This document shows positions 182-63,800 of a stretch of DNA of 64,000 nt, in pieces. The translations under genes were made by a program, and so were the position numbers. The first letter of the stretch is position 1; every line of letters begins with the position of its first letter. The DNA comes from Yuukianura sp. NJ FZ-2021 (taxonomy: Eukaryota). Under the pieces are notes generated by a model. It worked only from the letters and a program-made list of their open reading frames with translations. It had not been told where the DNA came from and did no database searches. The stretch covers positions 3,100,001-3,164,000 of the forward strand of contig CM102290.1 in the NCBI GenBank assembly GCA_046563655.1, written 5' to 3'.

Positions 182-1930
182 TTAGTCCCAGTCGTCATCT
201 TCTGACAAATTCCCGGTACGGGAATCGAAGGAGTCGTCATTGACGGGGATGGGAATGCTGGAAGCCATTTTCTTCATGATGTCTCCGATTCCGGTTCCCT
301 TGTTAGTGTCATTGATCCCAGAAATACCCTGAACCGTAACATAGTCATCAAAACGTTAATCAACATGGAACAGCATCTTTAGCTGCTTGACAATACATGA
401 CAACTTACCCGACGACGCATGGCCAACGAATTCTTCAAATCCTCCAACAAATCACCTCCTGTTCCAGCAGCTTCTTTCTTTGGCCCATTAGTACTTGCTG
501 GAGTTGCGTTCTTAGCTGACTTGAGCTTGGATTTCCCGCCAGCATCTCGAATGGCTGCCATAAGAGTAGATCTCATGTCTACATTTCCCCCTGCTGGTTC
601 TTGTCGGATGACTGTCGGTGGGGCAGTAGCAATGGTGGCTTGTTCCTCTGGTCGACCAACAGTTGGGGGTGGTGGAGGAGGAGGTGGGGCAGGGAATACT
701 TGAGCCAAGGTTGGAAAAGGTTGTTTCGGTGGTGTATGTTCAGGGTTTGCATCGGAGAGTAAGAAAGCAGGCATCGGTGGAGGTGGCGGTGGGATAAATG
801 CTGGTTTGTCCTGAAGCTGTTCTGGAGGTGAGTGGGATGGTCTAACTGGTTCTGGTTCTTTCACATATTGAGATGGTATTGGCGTAGGAGTGGTTGACCT
901 TTGAGTAGCACTGACGTCCAAAGTATTGAAATGAATTGTCTCCGAAAGTCCTGAGAAAAATAATCTCGTCAAAATCAAGAAATACACAATAAAGTCATAT
1001 AGAAAACAACAGTAAATTGATAAAAACTGCAATTGATGTGTCACCTGGTAAAGACGGAAGATGCTCTGGAAGGTCAATTTGAGGAATTTGAACTGATGAA
1101 GGATAGTAATAGAAGTCGTCCAGTTCGTCACCATTGTTGCTTTGCGACGTTTCATCAGTCTTGGTCACATCTTTCCGACTCGCTTCTGCTAAAGTTTGGT
1201 TAGCAGAGCTCACTTTATGCCGAGCGCCTTTGGTACTGGTACTGGCGCTACTTCCATCCGATACAATGTAGTTTTGATATCTATAAAAACAAAACCACTA
1301 GCAAATAAATGACTTACGGATGATGAATTTTTATGTTAAGTTAATATTTACTCACGGGTTAACGTGGGTATTGAAAAGAAAATAACTGTCCAGGAATTCA
1401 AGCTCTTCCGGTGGATTTCCTAAACCAAGCTCATATTTGGTACCGAGTTGAGATAGACTGGAGGCCTTGGCATAGTTCAAGTCGCGCACTCGATAGTACT
1501 GCAGGAGTTCGTCCATGTGTTTCACCGGAGAGTCGTACAAAATACGTTTGCTTTTTATTCTGGACAAAAAGTCGTCAGCAGTATCTCGAATTTCTCGTTC
1601 GTTTCCAAGTGGCCGAAGAAGAATAATTGGAAATTGTTGCGGCTTTTCTACGGATTCTCCTTCTGGAAACTTGGCCGGAGATACGATATGAATAAGCTTC
1701 GGTGAATTTTTGAAATTGGATACTTTTGTTGCCGCAGCAGTAACTCGTGTCCTCAATGCAGCAACCTCAGTATTCTGACTTCTGATTCTTTCCTGGATTC
1801 TGCCGAATATCTCGTCTGTAATGGCACTAAGGTGATCCAACGCTGACACCATTTCAAATACGACTTCTTCACGGTGACAATTGGCCGGAACCAGCCGAAC
1901 GTTATACTTTTCGCCTCCTTTGACTTTCAT
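182..1930 (-). CDS. WASH1: WASH complex subunit 1 (Arp2/3 nucleation-promoting factor), 4 coding exons (~1930-1357, ~1280-1046, ~951-409, ~329-182)
   Basis: N-terminal WHD1/WAHD-like region (REEVVFEMVSALDHL...SPAKFP...LGLGNPP...FNTHVNP), 'IDLPEHLPSLPG' motif, poly-Pro tracts, WH2 (STLMAAIRDAGGKSKLKS), C region (DLLEDLKNSLAMRR|GISG) and acidic end EDDDWD*. GT-AG junctions keep frame. Confidence 0.93.
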
Positions 1931-2443
1931 GGTTGAAACTAACCTGGAATACGACAACAAAACGATATCAAACATTTATTTAACTTTTCATTTATCAATC
2001 ATTACGAGAACTCACCAATTAAATTAAGTTAAACTGCCGATGCTGATCATAAATACGTACAAAATACCATCTGACTGTACACGCTGGACCAAAGTGCAGA
2101 TGATTTCTTCCGGTGAGATGGTGGGACGTGGGAGCACAGCCAACAAACCGTAAATCAGCTGATCTGAGTTCACTTGAGATTGAGTGTGCACGAGGTGAGG
2201 TGTGCCAAACCAAGACTGGATTCATTTTTACATCGGCAAAACAAGTGCCAAAATCTGACGTGACAGAACGCCACTTTGACATGTTATAGCAATGAGAAAA
2301 CAAAATTTTAACGTCAACGATGATACGAGTGACCTCGTCCAAGCTCCCTATTTATTGCAATATGAAAATACATAGAAAGATTGATTCTTTTAATAATTAA
2401 ATCGTTGAAGTGTAAGATAATTAACGTTAACAGTTCAGCTTCT

Positions 2444-6218: not shown

Positions 6219-8127
<1,909 letters not shown>

Positions 8128-8403
8128 TGGTGGGATTAGGAACAATTAGCAACTGTTTTTTTAATTACTAGATTCTATATTGTTAGATAAATCGAGACAA
8201 ATCGCAAGGGTAAAGAGAAGCTGAAGATACAAAAGTTAAGCCTTCCTTTAGAAAACATAAGAATAACTAATATATGGAATGCAACAATTTCCGAATTTTA
8301 TTGTTTTAGAGTAAAACTGTTGACTTGGTCTTTCCAAAGTGGAGGTTAGTGTTAATTAAATGTGATTAATTGACATCTAAACAGTGTTGAGAGTACATAA
8401 GTA

Positions 8404-8607
8404 CAGTAGAGCCTCTCATTGCGCAACTTTTAGCTCCGCCTCTCATAATGGTAGGGTACCGTAAAACCTCAGTAGTTGGATGGGTTTCATTTGTAAACAA
8501 AAACAAAAAAAAGCGTTTCGGGTAATTGAATCCCTCAGATCTCGTATAACTTGGAGCCTCTTCAAACCCACCAATCAGGGCGTGTTGCTCAATGAGGAGT
8601 TTTACTG
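8404..8607. mobile_element. Tc1/mariner-pogo-type MITE (~204 bp)
   Basis: Imperfect TIRs CAGTAGAGCCTCTCATTGCGCAAC / GTTGCTCAATGAGGAGTTTTACTG, flanked by TA on both sides. Confidence 0.7.
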
Positions 8608-8633
8608 TATTAATATTTACGGAGGGAACTTAA

Positions 8634-9482
8634 TTATTTGGTTTCTGTAAGGCTATATTTCAATTGGAGCAGCTCCATGGACTTTTCATATAGAATTCCT
8701 GGTCGAATGATTTTAAAGTGACCAGGAATGGACAAGTCGATGACGGTGGAGCCGCAACGTTCCAAGTCATCCGACGGTAACGATGGACACGACGAAGCGC
8801 TCTTATCTAACTTGATTGTTCCACCGTCAAACACCCCTTCTAGTCTTGCCCAAAGTGACTTGAATTCTTCTGGAGAAATAGTAGAAGGGCAGGCTGAAGG
8901 ATTAGCACTAGTGAGAGCGAAGGGCCCGCCATGCTCCCGGGCCAGTTGACGAGCAAATTCATGGTTTGGAATTCGAATTCCAATTAAATCGGTATTGGGA
9001 TTAAGATGTGGGTTGAGTGCGCTTCGTCGCTGAAATACTAAAGTAACTGGTCCTGGAAGGAATTCTTGAAGTAGAGACCGTGGTACGGTCAGTTCTGCCC
9101 ATGTTTCAATTTCATCAATTTCGGCTATGCAAATGGCAATTGGTTTCTGGGAATCTCGTCCCTTGATGTCGTACAGTAGAGCAATTGCTTCGTCTCTCTG
9201 GCAGTCAACTGCTAAACCGTACAGAGTGTCTGTTGGAATGGCTATGACTCCGCCGGTTTTGAGCATGTCAGCACCAATCCTGGCGAGGGCCTTGACTTTC
9301 TCTGGCTCTGTTGGTAACTTGAAAACCCTGGTCTGAGACTCTCCGTTCCTTTCTACTGTCATGGTGGCTTGGACAAGCGGTCTCGCAAGTAGATTTGAAG
9401 TAGTGCTTACTGTAGAAAAAGATTTACCGGCAACAGAGACGGAACGGAATCGATATAGGAGTTGGACTGCAATTTTCATCAT
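8634..9482 (-). CDS. YRDC: Threonylcarbamoyl-AMP synthase YrdC/Sua5 (t6A37 tRNA modification), single coding exon, 282 aa
   Basis: VIAIPTDTLYGL, IKGRDSQKPIAI, LPGPVTLV, IGIRIP, ALTSANPS, GSTVIDLS, IIRPG. First in-frame ATG at 9482, just after an acceptor at 9499. Confidence 0.95.
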   Translation of the reverse strand: MMKIAVQLLYRFRSVSVAGKSFSTVSTTSNLLARPLVQATMTVERNGESQTRVFKLPTEPEKVKALARIGADMLKTGGVIAIPTDTLYGLAVDCQRDEAIALLYDIKGRDSQKPIAICIAEIDEIETWAELTVPRSLLQEFLPGPVTLVFQRRSALNPHLNPNTDLIGIRIPNHEFARQLAREHGGPFALTSANPSACPSTISPEEFKSLWARLEGVFDGGTIKLDKSASSCPSLPSDDLERCGSTVIDLSIPGHFKIIRPGILYEKSMELLQLKYSLTETK

Positions 9483-9622
9483 CAGTAGCAAAACATCCCT
9501 GTGTGTCAAAGCAAAAAAGAAATCAGAATATCACTCAACGTTAAAGCCGAATTGCTCATACCTTGCTACTTTTCGTATAACCTATAGCACCAACCGAGAT
9601 GAAAACGGGTCGCTCTTAATGA

Positions 9623-10037
9623 CTATTCTCTCCAGTTATGTCGGCAGTCCTCGTTAGTACATTCGTAGAAATTGGTCATGGGTTCATCAGCTGAACGGGT
9701 TTGCATTTGCCTAAAGTACGCTTCCGTGTGACTACAAACAGGGCAAATGACTTCTGTTCGTTCCCGACGTTCGTTCTCCTTCTTGAGGTCAATTACTTTA
9801 TTTCCAGCGTCCTCCGTGTCTCTCTAAAAAGTTAAACATAAAAATTAGTATACTAAAATCTAACGTTTGGAAAATTTATACTCTTACCTTAATCACTGTT
9901 CTGTTGACGATTTTAGACGAAATATTAACGTAGTACGGACAGCGTGGACAATCCAGTCGGTAGCAAATATTTAATTCACTATTATTAAGTGTGAGTAGAT
10001 CGTGGCATATGGGACAAAATACGTATTTCCCATGCAT
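9623..10037 (-). CDS. POLR3K: RNA polymerase III subunit RPC11 (TFIIS-like), 116 aa, exons 10037-9888 and 9823-9623; absent from the ORF track
   Basis: Manual translation: MHGKYVFCPICHDLL...RLDCPRCPYYVNISSKIVNRTVIK|RDTEDAG...VICPVCSHTEAYFRQMQTRSADEPMTNFYECTNEDCRHNWRE*. Two Zn ribbons, the QTRSADEPMT acidic hairpin and the WRE end are characteristic of RPC11. Confidence 0.9.
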
Positions 10038-10200: not shown

Positions 10201-11048
10201 TCTTTTTCTCTGTCATTAAGAAAACCAAAGGGCCCTTCGATACCGTTACAAAAAAAAACAGTCTGTGCCCCTTGGCCTCACGCTGACCCTACAGTGATTG
10301 GTATTGAATTTCAATTAATTGACTGAATCTTAATCAGGACAAGGTGTTAACGTTAATTAATTAATAATTAATTTTTATTACACAATAATTTATTCCTGGA
10401 AAGCGTCAATGACTCTTCTGCTCCTATCTCCGTTTCGACTCCTTCCGTTCACGGGTTTACCGTAGTTGTTCCATACAAAGTAGTTGGTAGAGCGCTTAAC
10501 AAAATAAAATTAACATTTCCATTTTTCAATAAATTAAAGCGCGTGATGAAAAATTTGTGTTAAAATCTATGAAATAAATATGTGATTGTTAATTAATTAA
10601 ACGAAAAGAATTCGGTAGTGATTAGTGAATATAGGAATGACGTTTCGGAGAAGCCCGTGGGTATGTGGGTAATTAATTATTGGTGCGTTTACGGTGCCGT
10701 TTGGTACAGACGCACGCAGATACGGGCAAAAGTTCTTTTTATTGTCATCTCTGTATATAGCAAGGAGCAGCGGAGTAAGCGCCAAGAGCAAGACTAAAAT
10801 CAAACTCAAATTAATTTTTAACTCCACTTTTAGTAACATTCAGTTAAATTCAGTGACTGTGTGACTAGTACCACTAATTGAGTAATCCAGCCTTTCCTGA
10901 TTACTAATTAACTCTAGGAAGACTAACAAAATGGCTACCTAACTCTCCAATAAGTGTAAGACCTAATTCGTTGACACGGTTCAACCCACCTCTCGAACAA
11001 CACCTCTTGTAAAAGTGGGAGAGCCAGCTCGACTGAAAAAACACAGAA

Positions 11049-15324
<4,276 letters not shown>

Positions 15325-44823: not shown

Positions 44824-47509
44824 TCAGTAGCCTCCACCTAAAGTAATAAAAAATCACTGAAAATTTTGAAATTTGTGTAAACAGAACGAGAGTTTGCCAA
44901 TTACCGATTGGCAAATTTTGGTCATTGACTTACCATAGCCTCCTCCACCGTGGCCTCCTCCACCGTGGCCTCCTCCACCGTGGCCCCCACCACCGTGGCC
45001 ACCACCCCCGCCGTACCCTGGAGCAAAAGAATTTGCACAATTAATTTGCAATTTTCCCATGTATAGAAAAATGGTACTAAAAAATAATAGATTTATGAAT
45101 AAATCCAAATAGAAAAGTAATTAATTTCAACCCGTTGGCAAAAAATCAAAAAGTTATGATCGGGCAGACAGGTGAAAAACTTTCACTCTGAAGTTTACCT
45201 TAATATCAAAAACCAATTACGAGAAAAACAACAGCTTCTGCACCTTTTGTAAATTACTGCCGGATATTTCAAAATTTGAAACTCATAAAAGTTTGTAATT
45301 TACCTCCATGTCCATATCCACCGCCTCCGTGACCTCCGTCATAGGATTTGTACTGATGTGCCCCCTTCTGTTTTCGTAATTCAAAACACATAATTTAGTT
45401 GTAAATCCAGTTGTAGAAATAATTGATTTTGGATTGAATTCAAATTGAGACGAAGTTCAAAGCCAGTTCCTGACCTTTCCATGGGAAGAGTGGTGACCAT
45501 GGTGACCTTTTTGTCCGTGTTGTGCATTGTGACCTTTGTGCTGGTCATCGTAGTGTCCTTGGTTATGATGTCCATACTTACTGTGGTGATTATCCTACTC
45601 AAATCAATCAATTTTACTTTTTATCAAATTTTGAAATTCTTTACCAACCACATTATGAAAAATCTTTTCTTTCTTTCTGTCTTTTTCATTTTCAAATTTT
45701 CGTTTTCTTTTGCGGGTCAATTTGTGTTAATTTTGTTCGAAGTTTTAAGAAAGAAAAAAGAGTTGTAAAATGAATGAATTTTTTCCTACTTTTTTGTTTG
45801 AAAAAAAATTGTCTTACATTGTGATGTGCGTTGTGATGTTGTCCATGATATTTTTTGCCTATGTTAACAGTAGGATGACTCTCAAATTTTGATTACAAAG
45901 TGCAAAGTACTTAGGTGTTAAGTGTCTGTTGAATTTTGAATTTTACCTCCGTGGTCGTTGTAATGCTGTCCATGGTCCCCATATTTTGCATGATGACCTC
46001 CTGTTGAAACAAGACGTATTGTACACAATGTCCAAGAATGTTTTGGTATTCATAGGCCAATGAACAATTAAACACCTTCGACATCCATTAGTGTCTGTTC
46101 CCATGGGAACCAATTAACTCACCTGAATGGTAGTCGTCATAGAACTTCTTCTGCTTCGAGTATTCATCCTAACGTAGACAGAAAAGAGGGTGTGGAATTA
46201 AATCAAATGCAGCCTATTAATGTAAGGATTACGGTACTCATTGAGTCATACCTTGTGATACGTATTGTGAAACCTAGGAATAGGAACATAAATTAGCGTA
46301 AAGGAATGTACAGCCATGTTCAAAATGGAATGTAAACAATGTAGTTCACACTTTGGATTAGTGGGACACTAATGTTAAGTGGCAATTACCCTTTGGTGGA
46401 GTGGCCTTTCCGGTGGCCTCCTTTCTTCCCGTACTTTTGATGCTTGGAACCTTTGGCGCCATGTTGCTTCCCACCGTAGTGTTGTCCACCTTGCTGGTTT
46501 TCAAAATCAGAACAAACGTTAACTTGATAAAATTTTCAAAATTTTCAAAATTGTGCTCATTTTGGTTCAATTTTTTGGGGTTGGCTTTGCAATTTCGAAA
46601 TTTACCTTGTGCCCTTTGCTATACCCACCGCTCGCTCCGTACTTTCCTTTCTTGTGAGCCTGAAATTGAACGCGCATGTGCAGATTAATTTTTTTTCGGT
46701 TTGCTATTTATGTTACGTTAGATCAGACGTTAAGTTACCCTGTTCTCGTGTCCATGGTTGCCTTTCTTGTAACCGTGCTGACTGTGGTGGCCCTAAAGAA
46801 ATTTAAAATTTCATTTTTTTTCAAAAAAAATTTTTTTTCTTAAAGTCTAAAATTTTGGCATTTTGTATAAACATGTCGCATTACTTGTCTTCCTTGGTGT
46901 CCATATTTATTGTAGTGTGATGCCCCATGACCTCCGCCTTTTGAATGACTAAAACCGAAAAAGCAAATTACATGACATGATGAAATTCAAACAAATTTCG
47001 GATTAACACAGGTTAATCCCAAATTTTAACCTGCCATACCCATGTCCTCCATGCCCTCCACCGCCATGTCCTCCGCCTCCATGTCCATATCCAGTAGCTT
47101 CCGCTGCCAAGTCAGTAGCTTCCGTGCTCCTTTTAATCCTGAGCCAAACGCTCGGTGTTGAATTTTCTGTTAAATTTCGATTTTGGAGAGAAAGTGCATA
47201 GTTTGGCGAACGTTTGACCCTTGACCCCGGTTGCTCCTCCTCTAAAGGCTCGTCTGACTCTTCTTCATCATCCGACTCTTCAGAATCTGTACTTGAAGTT
47301 TCGTCATAGTCTTCATCCTCCTCAGCGTCGTTTCCATCTTCGTATTGGCCGCCCGAATCATCTGGAAGTTCTTGATACTGGACATCGGTGCTATTCGGTT
47401 CTGAAGTGGCTTCAACCTGCACACAAACAGTTCCTGCAACTAGCACCACACAAAACACAGCAATGAAAAGGTCATTGACCTTTCGGCTTTTTGACCTCGA
47501 ACCGGGCAT
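44824..47509 (-). CDS. Secreted His/Gly-rich protein A (DUF4779-like core), 13 coding exons, most under 130 nt
   Basis: Hydrophobic signal (LFIAVFCVVLVAGTVCVQVEA), acidic tract, RVKR and RIKR sites, DLAAEATGYGHGG, core GHSTKGFHNTYHKDEYSKQKKFYDDYHSG, GGGGH repeats, ends GGY* TGA TGA. All 12 introns are GT-AG and preserve frame. Confidence 0.85.
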
Positions 47510-47651
47510 CCTGCCCTCCACTAGTCCCAGTTTTTTAATTTTAAAAAACAAAAATTTAAGAAAAAAAACTAGAAAACTGAATTTTAAACTCTGATTAGAG
47601 CGTCGGTCCTTCTTCGTTTTTCATTTCCTAGCTTTTATGTAACTTTTGAGT

Positions 47652-58371: not shown

Positions 58372-58466
58372 CCTCTTGACCCGCCAAATTTGTTAGGCTC
58401 AACTCCTGGTGACATCTGAAGTGAAATTTGACCTCAGCCGAAGTTACTTTGGATCAACCCAGAACT

Positions 58467-60527
58467 ATGGTGAATGTTTTGTTTTGGAGTTTAGTCTTCG
58501 GTGTGCTGTTAAATGTTAACCCGTTGACCTTTACCCTGGCTATTGACCCGCCAATTGAAACGCAGACACAGAGTTACGTTTTACTACAGAATGAAACCGT
58601 AGTATTCGACAGCGAAGATCCAGAAACGACCACGCCCGAAATTCTAAAGAGTGAAACGGATGACCCATCTGACCTCCGTGACCTCGAACGTGAAGAGCAC
58701 TCCGAAGATGACCATGAATCTAGTGAAGACGAACATGACAGTTCCAGTGAAGCAGCAGAAGCCGTACCTACCAAGAATGACGGTAATTCAGCCCTCAATG
58801 GCACTGACGACGCAGAGCCCTTAGCGCAGGGCACATCTTTAGCTGAAGTGATTTCACCACAATCAAAAGCTGTAGACTTGGCAGCAGAAGCGACTGGATA
58901 CGGCCACGGAGGCTATGGTGGCATTGGAAGTGACGGACAGTAAGTTCAAGACTTCATAGACTCATGCGCGGCAAGTTTAAGCTAAAATTTGAAATTTTTA
59001 GTTATGGCGGGCATGAAAAGGACGTCCACGGTGGAGGAAGTAACTATCACTCCAATCATCACGCTAATAAAGGTTTGTTAGGCATTTCACTGTGGCAAAT
59101 TCTAAATTGAAAATAATTTTTATGAATGTAATAATTCGTTTGTTTTGTTAAGGGTACAAGGGGAATCAAGGACACCACAATTCTGCTGGACACAATTCAG
59201 GTCGCAGTGGACACTATAATAAAGTAATACAATTTCGCACCTTAAACAAACTGCACTAAACTAATGAATGTTTTAAAATTATTTTATATTTTTTGTTAAA
59301 GGCGCATAAGAAAGGAAGTCATGGAAGTAACAAAGCGTACAATTCTGGACACAAGTCTGGAGCACAAAAGTATGGTGGAAATCATCATGGGGCCAAAGGT
59401 CAACCAAGAAGAATTTGTGTAAACATATAAATTAAAGTATAAACTTTGTATTATCATGTTTGCAGGATCCAAACATGCAACGTACGGAAGGAAAGGTCAC
59501 CAGCGTAAAGGTCACACAACGAAAGGGTAGATAAAGCAAGCAAGAACCAAAAAATAGCAAAATAGTGTAAAAGTTTTTACAAATGTTTAATTGTTCAACA
59601 GGTTCCACAATACCTACCACAAGGTAAAGGTCAAAGGTCAAATAGGATTTTCCATCTTTTGAAAAGCAAAAGCATTATGTTAAAAAATATTTAGGACGAG
59701 TATAGCAAGCAACATCAATTCTACGACGAGGATCACTCCGGTAAATAACGCTTTTATATTTTATATTCATATATATTTTACAATAAATATTTTTGCTAGT
59801 TGAGGAAATATACTAAATTTTCAAGTTTTATATTTTGGCACTCAGATGGCCATCATGCAAATCATGGAAATCACGGACAAACACACAACCAGCACCATGG
59901 AAATCAGTATCACGGGGGTCATCATAATGCTGGGTAATGTAATGAGGCTAAGCTTGACCTCTGACCTCTGGGGGACACTTTGACCTTAACATTTCGTTTT
60001 TCGTAACATATTTGTCTTTTTAGCCATAACAATCATCACCATAACCAATATGGACACCATTTGAACGGCCACCACGATCAAGGTAACACATAAAACAAAT
60101 CTATACTAGAAATCTAAATTTTAAATTTGTATTTTAGCGGACAAAGGCCACTACTCCAATCACGGGCAAAAAGGTGCAGCATTTTTTTTGTCAATTCTCA
60201 ACAGCGCTAAACTTCAAAACAATTTTTATGTAAAATTTTTTGTTGTAGGGCATCATGGACACCACAGTAATCATGGAAGTCAAGTAAAGTCAAACCTGTG
60301 TCCAAAATTGAAAAAAAATACAAAGTTTTTAAGGAATATTTAATTTTCAAAATTTGCAGGGAGGTAACCATTACCACAGTGGGCATCAGAAAGAATTGCA
60401 TGGACAAGGTCACGGAGGTCACGGATATGGACATGCAGGTCACGGAGGTCACGGATATGGACACGCGGGTCACGGAGGTCACGGATATGGTGGTCAAGGT
60501 TATGGCCACGGCGGTGGTGAATATTGA
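58467..60527 (+). CDS. Secreted His/Gly-rich protein B (DUF4779-like core), paralog of A, 12 coding exons
   Basis: Signal peptide MVNVLFWSLVFGVLL..., acidic tract, DLAAEATGYGHGG, core GHTTKGFHNTYHKDEYSKQHQFYDEDHSD, (GHGGHGYGHA) repeats, ends GGEY* TGA TAG. AATAAA at ~60698. All introns are GT-AG and in frame. Confidence 0.85.
60408..60490 (+). repeat. 30-bp coding tandem repeat (GHGGHGYGHA, ~3 copies)
   Basis: GGTCACGGAGGTCACGGATATGG recurs every 30 nt. Confidence 0.85.
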
Positions 60528-60876: not shown

Positions 60877-63800
60877 TCACTCTTGATAGTTATAGTCCTC
60901 CGTGACAGAGTAATGGTGTCCACCATGGTAGTGGGGACTGTTCCTTGGGCAGTTGGTGCCCCTGCAGCGTCGACTTCGCTCCAACTTCGGTGAACATGGG
61001 TGACCACCATTTTCATTAAAAACCTATTTCAAAAAAAAATAAAAAAAAAATTTTTTTAGATTTAAAAAATGTGTACGTACTTCTATGTAGCGACTTCTAT
61101 ACTCCAAGCCCCATCCACAAGAGACGCTGCAGCTACTCCATGGGCTCCATGCACTTAGTTTGCAGTCCACTCTGGGTCCGTCGTCAATGTATGGTGGTTG
61201 GTAGGGGCGGGGGTTCACGTAAGTGTTAGCAGTGGGTGGGGGTGTTGGATACTGGTAGCGTTGGGGGTAGGTTTGTGTATGATGTTGGGGGTAAGTTTGT
61301 GTTTGCTGTTGGGGGTAAGTTTGTGTTTGATGTTGGGGGTAAGTTTGTGTTTGATGTTGCGGGTAAGTTTGTGTTTGATGTTGGGGGTAAGTTTGTGTAT
61401 GAGGTTGTGTGTCCAGTCGTGACATTCCAGAGTAGGACGATGTGCCTTGACGATATGGATCATGTCCAGAGTATTGATTGTAAGGCATCACTGCGTTGTC
61501 GTCAATTGGCCTTGAGTGGCTCGAATGTCGTCCTCGTGCCGGCATGTTACTCAAATTGTCTGAAAAAGAAATTACACAAAGTGAATCAGCTAAACAAAAC
61601 TTCGTCTGACTTTAACTTCGTTTTTTGATTTTGGAATAAACCGCAGTCACGGTAGAAGCTGTGCTAATGTGCAGCGAAAGCGCAAGCGTGCGTGGAAAAA
61701 TTATTTTCAAAAATGTTTGATACCACAGTCGAGTGACGTTTCGTCTGGTACGACGTAGGTAAAAGCACTGGAAATGACTACGCCGTACTTCGACTGAGCT
61801 TCACTACGCTCCTTAACCAGTGTAACTATTGTTAAAATCAAAAGCGTATCGGTCAAAAGGTCAAAAACTAGTTTAAATTGTTAAGTCAAAACCCTGCAAA
61901 CTGCTGCAAACTTGGTTACATTCCTGTTGGGTTCTAAAATTATTCCTGGTGGCTTTACATCCAGAGTAAGTGAACGGTTGACATCGGAGTTTGACCCGGT
62001 CAAAGTACCAACGACTCACTTTGTCTCTGCATCCTCCCGTATTTCTCGGTTCCAAACAATCGGCTGAATGTTATTTGTGTCAGTTTTGCCAAATAAGCGT
62101 TGGTTAGCAACAATTTTTCAAAAATTCTAAAATTAGGGACAGCCATAGAAGTTTTGTCAAGGAATGTCGCATACCTGTAGTTCTTTCTGGTGGGCAGTGC
62201 TGTTGAATTCCATCACAAGTCTCCGTTTGCTGCATTTCCAGCTTACATTGTCGATGGTCAAAGAGTGGAAACTTGTACAGCCTGTCCCGTGTCCTGATGC
62301 CCTTGCCACAAGTGACGGAGCAAGGACGCCAAGGGCCCCAATCTGTGACGTCACACCCTTCCCCTACTTCCTGAAACCACAAATTTTGTACTTTTGAGTC
62401 ATAAGGTATTATTAAGAGTCGATCTATAGAAGGTCAAAGGTCAAACCTTTGACGAAACGTCTTCAGGATCCCGACATTCTGGAGTTTTGGGACATCTCGA
62501 AGTATTTTTCAACTTGATATGCGTCTCACACTTGTGAATTTTGGCTTGCATGGGGCGTAGGAAACTTCTTGTTTGATGTCGGACCCCTTTGCCGCATGGA
62601 TCACTGCAGATTGACCAAGGTCGCCATTCAGTTGTTCCACAAACGTCATTTAGTGGATCTCCGAAACCGGGTTCTTCGGGTGGCTTCCGACCGGTATCCG
62701 GTACTCCTGGTACCGGTTGGCGGGGGCGTGGCTCGCGGTAGTAAGGACTCCTGTTGTCAACGTTGTAGACATTGAGTTGGTCGTATGGACTTTGTCGACC
62801 AGAGTCATCATAAGAGCTTTGACCGGAATAAGTCCCCCTGTACATAGAAACTTAAGATTAGCTTAGTTAGGATAAACAACTAGAAAGATTTAGACTTAGC
62901 GGTAAAATTCAGCCGTTAAGACCGAATTTCATACTTGCAAGGTCGTGGATTGTGACATGGTCGTTCAACGGTGTCTTGACGGTTACACTGAGCTTCCCTT
63001 GCGCGCACTTCATTTACATAGCGGCGTGTCTTTTTCTTTGTGCCTGTGCCGCAAGTTGGATTGCAAGGTGACCACTGTGACCAGGGGTACATGGCACATT
63101 CGGCTAAAACAAAAATAAAAAAATGAAAATTAATTAATACGCAGGGTTGTCAAAAATATGTGCTAAAAACTACCAAAATATGGACAAACAAAAATATTTG
63201 TTTAATCGCTCAAATATTTACTTATTTAAGATCAAGCGCAAATAAATAAATATTTAGCAACAAAAACCCGCAAATATTTTTTGCTAAAACTACGTAAATG
63301 AAGACTAAATATTTTTGGCATCCCTGCTAATAAGACACAACAGGACTACTTGTAACTACCGAGGTCTCTTACGTCTGTCTGTGTCCCTGTGTGGTGAATT
63401 CTCGTCGAATTCGTCATCTCCGTAGTCAGTGTGACCAAATGACCCGGTCGGATGAAATGTCTCTTCACATGCCCCGCGCTTGTAAGTTCTTTGTTGCTGA
63501 AGACGCAGAATCGCAAATGGTTTGAGTGCATTTCCATCAGGGTCGTAAAATGGTGAGTCGGGATTGCTGCTCCAAACAAGGCGCTGGATTTCAACTCTCG
63601 GAATTGTTGGTGAATCAGGATCCTAAATTTAGTTAAATAAAAAATTTCATAATTTAAAAAAAATCATAAAAGACGAACTGAAATTATTCCTACCGTGTAC
63701 GATGAACCGCTGTCCGTTCCAGCATCATTTGGATAAAGTTGAAGTACTTTCTCTGCCAACCAGCTTCCGTTTCTTCCACATAAGTTTACAGCCGAAACAC

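Follow-up and report, generated by a model that had tools for sequence, protein, structure and literature searches.

The closest described counterpart of the locus considered here is the CG33785-CG33786 pair of Drosophila, in which an open reading frame (ORF) for RPC11 (Polr3K, POLR3K), a subunit of RNA polymerase III (Pol III), precedes an ORF for the threonylcarbamoyl-AMP (TC-AMP) synthase YrdC (Tcs2) on a dicistronic messenger. The present analysis concerns the corresponding pair, RPC11 and YRDC, in 64,000 nucleotides (nt) of Yuukianura sp. NJ FZ-2021 (assembly GCA_046563655.1, contig CM102290.1, positions 3,100,001 to 3,164,000 of the forward strand), hereafter called the window, whose first letter is position 1. 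According to Hayden and Bosco (2008; PMC2276209), Misra et al. (2002) catalogued the fly locus as CG33005 ORFA/ORFB in a set of 31 dicistronic genes, and it was renamed CG33786-CG33785; in the 2008 account it is one of five genes of the 2002 set with an upstream ORF (uORF) that encodes a conserved peptide, here of 108 amino acids. The tables of that paper give the upstream ORF a ratio of nonsynonymous to synonymous substitution (Ka/Ks) of 0.03, which denotes strong purifying selection, assign the pair the functional label "Transcription (uORF), Translation (mORF)", and follow its conservation out to an expressed sequence tag (EST) of Bombyx. The additional file lists single ESTs that hold the C-terminus of RPC11 together with the N-terminus of YRDC from six dipteran and lepidopteran species, namely D. 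melanogaster, D. pseudoobscura, D. willistoni, Aedes aegypti, Lutzomyia longipalpis and Bombyx mori. In the FlyBase tabulation of Crosby et al. (2015; PMC4528330), CG33785 and CG33786 have the same extent, both are entered as 'all di/polycistronic', their stop and start are given as 'OVERLAP 1 nt', and the similarity column calls them 'unrelated'.

The RPC11-YRDC dicistronic pairing is thus already known and has been catalogued since 2002, and the original prediction, which took it to be undescribed, was mistaken on this point, as the entries for CG33785/CG33786 in PMC2276209 and PMC4528330 make plain. In the literature that could be searched, no paper pairing Polr3K or YRDC with the word "dicistronic" was found, papers on springtails and polycistronic transcripts did not treat this locus in title or abstract, and PMC5372737, which identifies CG33786 as the fly Tcs2, does not contain the terms dicistronic or bicistronic.

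In the window, the RPC11 ORF lies immediately upstream of the YRDC ORF on the minus strand, with no gene between them. The families, their order and their shared strand are those of the Drosophila pair, and the first ORF is of similar length in both (about 108-116 codons). We consider it fairly likely that the window pair, probably from a springtail-like hexapod, is orthologous to the conserved arthropod locus represented by CG33785/CG33786 and is expressed as one transcript. This reading is based on homology with the fly locus and on the nearly abutting ORFs of two related metagenomic loci, L001 and L003, introduced below. There are also differences. In Drosophila the stop shares 1 nt with the start, whereas in the window 140 nt, with an intron-like segment and a four-codon mini-uORF, separate the two ORFs; near-abutment, which characterizes the fly locus but need not characterize the family, is therefore absent here. 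The window RPC11, of 116 amino acids, has a divergent N-terminal half, unlike CG33785. Finally, co-transcription of the fly locus is shown by ESTs, whereas the window pair is known from its genes alone. A bicistronic transcript, which the original prediction had proposed, is accordingly the best-supported reading by virtue of orthologous loci (the fly annotation, the ESTs and the L001 and L003 spacers) and not through RNA of the window organism. For that organism we infer co-transcription, splicing within the spacer and a reinitiation route to YRDC.

RPC11 is a two-exon gene running from 10037 to 9623 on the minus strand. Exon 1 (9888..10037; 150 nt, 50 codons from the ATG at 10037) encodes a putative N-terminal zinc ribbon, and exon 2 (9623..9823; 66 codons and the stop TAG at 9625-9623) the C-terminal zinc ribbon of TFIIS type, in which the RSADEP acidic loop and four Cys are present. 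The intervening 64-nt intron (9824..9887, GTAAG...TTTTTAG) is in phase 0 and occupies the identical position in L001, and the exons join into a frame that is open for 116 codons. Exon 2 matches Pfam Zn_ribbon_TFIIS (PF01096) at E=3.9e-19. Exon 1 reaches Zn_ribbon_RPB9 (PF02150) at E=2.8e-4 and 21.2 bits, under the cut-off of 25.2; a CxxC...CxxC pattern is visible in this half of the protein, and L001 has the same divergent N-terminus (exon 1 66% identical over 50 amino acids). Among solved structures, exon 2 has its best match in human POLR3K (2.2e-15), followed by RPB9 (2.1e-11), TFIIS (3.8e-6) and RPA12 (1.1e-5), and the best match of exon 1 is human RPC10/POLR3K (E=2.2e-5), followed by yeast C11 (0.025), with neither RPB9 nor RPA12 matched by exon 1 among solved chains up to E=1. 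By this best-hit argument the upstream gene is identified as Pol III C11, closer to POLR3K than to its RPB9, RPA12 and TFIIS paralogues. A homology search with exon 2 returned 13 proteins, of which the named ones are from protists. No fused RPC11-YRDC protein was found: RPC11 matched only its own 13 homologues among 286 proteins, and no YRDC homologue, including the best 150 of 22,163 representatives, matches RPC11.

The YRDC coding sequence (8634..9482, minus strand; ATG at 9482, stop at 8636-8634) is intronless and encodes 282 amino acids. Its sole Pfam family is Sua5_yciO_yrdC (PF01300, E=3.3e-42), and the Sua5 C-terminal domain is absent. The KxR and LTSAN motifs are conserved, with K107, R109 and T191-N194 invariant in an alignment of 19 sequences, and solved TC-AMP synthases match the protein at 3e-23 to 1e-13. 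On these matches the downstream gene is assigned as a threonylcarbamoyl-AMP synthase of YrdC type and not of Sua5 type; the identities first proposed for both genes thus agree with Pfam and with solved structures. The first 40 residues include five K/R, no D/E and ten S/T and look like a mitochondrial presequence; the second Met is residue 41, and the product may be dually targeted. Past the stop codon, the first variants of the poly(A) signal in a hexamer scan are AATACA and AGTAAA, which overlap at 8601..8611 on the minus strand and form a candidate 3' end of the unit.

The affinities of YRDC bear on the lineage to which the locus belongs. Of 1688 candidates, 932 are homologues at E <= 0.001, the top one being P0002, which is 57% identical. 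The best named homologue is from the springtail Orchesella dallaii (57% identity over 72% of the query), and P0007, 54% identical to the window protein, belongs to a 90% cluster that includes a protein of Folsomia candida. A tree of 45 rows, a quick search on a single short protein, has one well-supported deep split (SH-like approximate likelihood-ratio test, SH-aLRT, 95). On one side of it are the window sequence, L001/P0002, eleven unnamed sequences, both named springtails and the bacterial outgroup, and on the other the remaining named animals. This placement suggests a springtail-like origin. Together, the window and L001 suggest that the RPC11-YRDC unit extends beyond Diptera and Lepidoptera to a springtail-like lineage, a reach that would make the pair one of the older conserved animal dicistrons.

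Related loci were sought by a metagenome scan with the 19-sequence YRDC alignment, in which 80 loci were kept and RPC11 was looked for upstream by tblastn; sequence upstream of the inferred start amounts to at least 100 nt in 70 of these loci, at least 400 nt in 58 and at least 2000 nt in 40. RPC11 was found upstream of YRDC on the same strand in three of the 80 (L001, L003 and L013). Most of the other 77 are merely 36-47% identical, and most of these loci are probably non-arthropod. The collinearity of L001 with the window extends through both flanking genes, making a syntenic block of four genes, and it is on this ground that L001 is regarded as a true syntenic relative; L003 lies on a metazoan-like contig. 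Spacer lengths are 34 nt (L001), 7 nt (L003) and about 1.06 kb (L013). With 34 or 7 nt between the ORFs, a separate terminator and promoter could not be accommodated there.

Both neighbours of the unit keep their place and orientation in L001. One is a convergent kinase-like gene (7636-8127 on the plus strand of the window, 3303-3710 in L001) with 87-92% amino acid identity, and the other a divergent upstream neighbour (11406-11552 in the window, 156-293 in L001).

The adjacency of the pair, raised at the outset as a point to be checked in related arthropods, thus recurs in three further loci, and this bears directly on the idea that RPC11 and YRDC are coincidental neighbours with neither shared expression nor a functional link. 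The FlyBase label 'unrelated' (in the similarity column of PMC4528330) and the distance of about 1 kb between the genes in L013 are what such a coincidence would lead one to expect, but Drosophila, mosquito, sandfly and silkworm, as listed in PMC2276209, all have the two genes in this order on one strand, and so do L001, L003 and L013. Because of this recurrence in other genomes the adjacency is beyond chance, and mere coincidence is very improbable.

The intercistronic spacer of the window (9483..9622, minus strand) measures 140 nt from the RPC11 stop to the YRDC ATG, as originally reported, and contains a putative intron. The segment (9499..9561, 63 nt) has an AAG|GTATGAG donor, a pyrimidine tract and a CAG acceptor, features that had been correctly described from the start, as well as a CTGAT branch-like site, and its removal (GT at 9561, last base of the AG at 9499) would leave a spacer of 77 nt. 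No such segment is present in the spacers of L001 or L003. An ad hoc intron filter (G|GTRWGW donor, length 50-90 nt, YAG after at least 13 pyrimidines in 20) passes 14 donor/acceptor pairs over both strands of the window (128 kb), six of them on the minus strand, where the RPC11 intron and the 9561-9499 segment account for two. About 0.6% of 140-nt intervals hold a pair that passes, and shuffled sequence gives the same rate; since the filter was designed after the case had been seen, this rarity flatters the segment.

A splice acceptor in this position also brings to mind the SL2 operons of the C. elegans type, which resemble the window in having two genes on the same strand and an intercistronic region of about 100 nt that ends in an acceptor. 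In an operon of this kind, a polycistronic precursor would give rise to two mRNAs, RPC11 being released by 3' processing and YRDC receiving a spliced leader by trans-splicing at the 9499 acceptor. The acceptor is strong (a pyrimidine tract and CAG), lies 17 nt before the YRDC AUG and about 120 nt past the RPC11 stop, and this layout recalls the intercistronic regions of C. elegans. Unlike those operons, however, the window has a good cis donor 63 nt upstream of the acceptor, which is the simpler explanation, and none of 13 poly(A) hexamer variants in the spacer that could serve the upstream gene; nor do the 7- and 34-nt spacers of the relatives contain an acceptor. We know of no spliced-leader trans-splicing in hexapods, which likewise counts against this arrangement, and a nematode-type operon is accordingly given hardly any credence.

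If the pair is instead expressed as a single dicistronic unit, a promoter upstream of 10037 would direct one pre-mRNA through both ORFs, with polyadenylation after 8634. RPC11 would be translated from the cap-proximal AUG, and YRDC by ribosomes that resume scanning after the RPC11 stop and traverse the 140 nt of spacer (77 nt if spliced). Leaky scanning to YRDC is implausible, because eight AUGs (spliced) or nine (unspliced), the RPC11 start included, precede that of YRDC. On the way, rescanning ribosomes may engage a four-codon mini-uORF (9482..9496, minus strand), the ATG of which, at 9496, is mRNA position 477 in the unspliced and 414 in the spliced form, and the stop of which, TGA at 9484-9482, shares one base with the YRDC ATG (TGATG). 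The mini-uORF is not conserved in L001 or L003.

This overlap recalls mRNAs that use termination-reinitiation at UGAUG or UAAUG sites, and the fly orthologue has a 1-nt overlap likewise. Unlike in those mRNAs, the long first ORF of the window ends 140 nt upstream, and no RNA structure that would promote reinitiation was detected by folding or in Rfam: the spacer folds no better than shuffles of it (z +0.76), and no Rfam family reaches threshold, the one match being at chance level (21.7 bits against a threshold of 105 bits). Nor do these results give any indication of a structured site at which ribosomes could enter. Noncoding nucleotide conservation with L001, whose spacer is 34 nt, was found neither in the spacer nor in the upstream region. 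The spacers of the fly, L003, L001 and the window (1-nt overlap, 7, 34 and 140 nt) form a series that is natural material for the study of second-cistron translation after an ORF of 108-116 codons.

The 5' part of the spacer (9596-9606, GUUUUCAUC) is complementary to the region of the YRDC start (9474-9484, GAUGAAAA), both read on the minus strand. In the predicted fold, a long-range stem between GUUUUCAUC and GAUGAAAA would sequester the YRDC start codon, in a spacer whose overall fold is no better than that of shuffles.

Two ways of making a fused product were considered and rejected. Simple readthrough from RPC11 into YRDC is excluded, as had been argued from an in-frame TAG in the spacer, by this second in-frame TAG at 9568-9566 and by the YRDC ATG being out of the RPC11 frame with or without the 63 nt. 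An in-frame fusion by alternative splicing fails as well, the joining of the exon-1 donor to the 9499 acceptor giving the wrong phase.

Several observations weigh against expression of the pair from one transcript. The window spacer is four times longer than that of syntenic L001; the eight or nine AUGs upstream of YRDC stand in the path of scanning ribosomes; and reinitiation after an ORF of 116 codons is generally inefficient, in the summary given by a review (PMC10275272). The 63-nt segment could equally be an intron in the 5' untranslated region (UTR) of an independent YRDC mRNA. The absence of poly(A) hexamers from the spacer, originally noted for AATAAA and ATTAAA and extended here to the 13 variants, is not significant and carries no weight, because 60% of spacer shuffles likewise have none; over the stretch bounded by the two stop codons, two hexamers occur against 4.7 expected (P=0.13).

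Two related loci add to these difficulties. In L013 (2434-4618), on the contig of a long-branch animal-like lineage, an intronless RPC11 and YRDC stand in tandem on one strand, and the gap of about 1.06 kb between them has a GC content of 26% and five AATAAA/ATTAAA sites; the two are presumably separate genes, and this arrangement suggests that the gene order may have preceded the tight dicistronic packing. L002 (1-1020) has an AATAAA followed by a terminal poly(A) run, for which reason it is regarded as RNA-derived. It encodes a YRDC with 85% identity to the Orchesella dallaii protein, and its leader of 74 nt is without RPC11 coding sequence, so that it is either a monocistronic YRDC mRNA or a 5'-truncated assembly. 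Some springtails may thus have monocistronic YRDC mRNAs or an unlinked pair.

In the main alternative reading, RPC11 and YRDC would be separately expressed, overlapping genes, with a transcription start for YRDC that falls either within exon 2 of RPC11 or among the first 60 nt of the spacer, and with the 63-nt segment serving as a 5'UTR intron. RPC11 transcripts may in that case read into YRDC, but the YRDC protein would come from a shorter, monocistronic mRNA. A spacer of 140 nt offers more room for such a start than one of 34 nt (L001) or 7 nt (L003); the 3' end of the intron-like segment is 17 nt from the AUG, a position that suits a 5'UTR intron; the upstream AUGs would make translation of YRDC from a long mRNA costly; and the RNA-like L002, from an Orchesella-like springtail, has just such a short leader without RPC11. 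Loci of mixed expression are moreover common in the FlyBase tabulation, where, of 159 dicistronic loci, 69 also yield a monocistronic transcript of one partner and 45 yield such transcripts of both (PMC4528330). The same tabulation nevertheless enters the Drosophila orthologues of this very pair as exclusively dicistronic, and the syntenic L001 has only 34 nt between its ORFs. In agreement with the original view that the spacer has no obvious core promoter, motifs of this kind are at chance level in 9483-9830, where TATA, DRE (the DNA replication-related element) and Motif-1 have no match and one hexamer resembling the initiator (Inr), at 9750, is about what chance would give. Nor is there a hexamer of the 13 for RPC11 from its stop down to position 8717, near the YRDC end. 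A separate start for YRDC is therefore judged unlikely, though well short of negligible.

As to what a single dicistronic unit would achieve, the nearest comparison is with MOCS2A/MOCS2B (Mocs2/CG42503 in Drosophila), which like RPC11-YRDC is a conserved eukaryotic two-ORF mRNA. The MOCS2A and MOCS2B products work in one pathway, and the locus is cited as a functionally related dicistronic pair where it appears in PMC2276209 and PMC4528330. Those two products are subunits of one enzyme, whereas in the making of tRNA, RPC11 belongs to the transcription step and YRDC to the modification of A37. To our knowledge, RPC11 and YRDC do not bind each other.

A functional coupling of the pair is nonetheless plausible, in which the dose of the Pol III cleavage/termination subunit would be tied to that of the first enzyme in the synthesis of N6-threonylcarbamoyladenosine (t6A) at position 37. 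The labels that the pair bears in the literature, "unrelated" or "transcription/translation", predate or ignore the fact that YrdC makes TC-AMP for t6A, and the searchable literature yielded no published comment that this locus functionally joins the transcription of tRNA to its t6A modification. Coupling of Pol III and t6A is thus a reasonable and testable idea of co-regulation that has seemingly gone unremarked. A more far-reaching proposal, which we regard as possible but rather doubtful, is that the RPC11-YRDC dicistron is ancient (dating at least to the divergence of insects from springtails, and perhaps earlier in view of L003 and L013) and has been kept by selection for coupled supply of Pol III and t6A. 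In the window lineage it would then have been remodelled from an abutting stop and start to a 140-nt spacer, with a spliceable intron and a four-codon uORF that tune the output of YRDC per RPC11.

Other features of the window lie outside the pair. Palindromic runs rich in TAATTA (TTAATTAATTAA-like) occur upstream of RPC11 at 10330-10390 and 10590-10615, and between YRDC and the kinase gene at 8350-8385. A single-exon ORF of 207 amino acids at 1355-1975 (minus strand) had no match in a homology search covering longer proteins only; we take it, as an unconfirmed guess, to be WASH-like. The ORFs at 47003-47620 (minus strand) and 58425-58943 (plus strand) have in common an acidic Ser-rich stretch, a near-identical 'DLAAEATGYGHGG' motif and Gly/His repeats, and look like paralogous secreted proteins. 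In the ORF at 61024-61611 (minus strand), about seven tandem QTQTYPQH repeats are followed by a Cys/Trp motif, which we take to be thrombospondin-type-1-like, and a similar Cys-rich motif is found in the ORF at 62441-62851 on the same strand.

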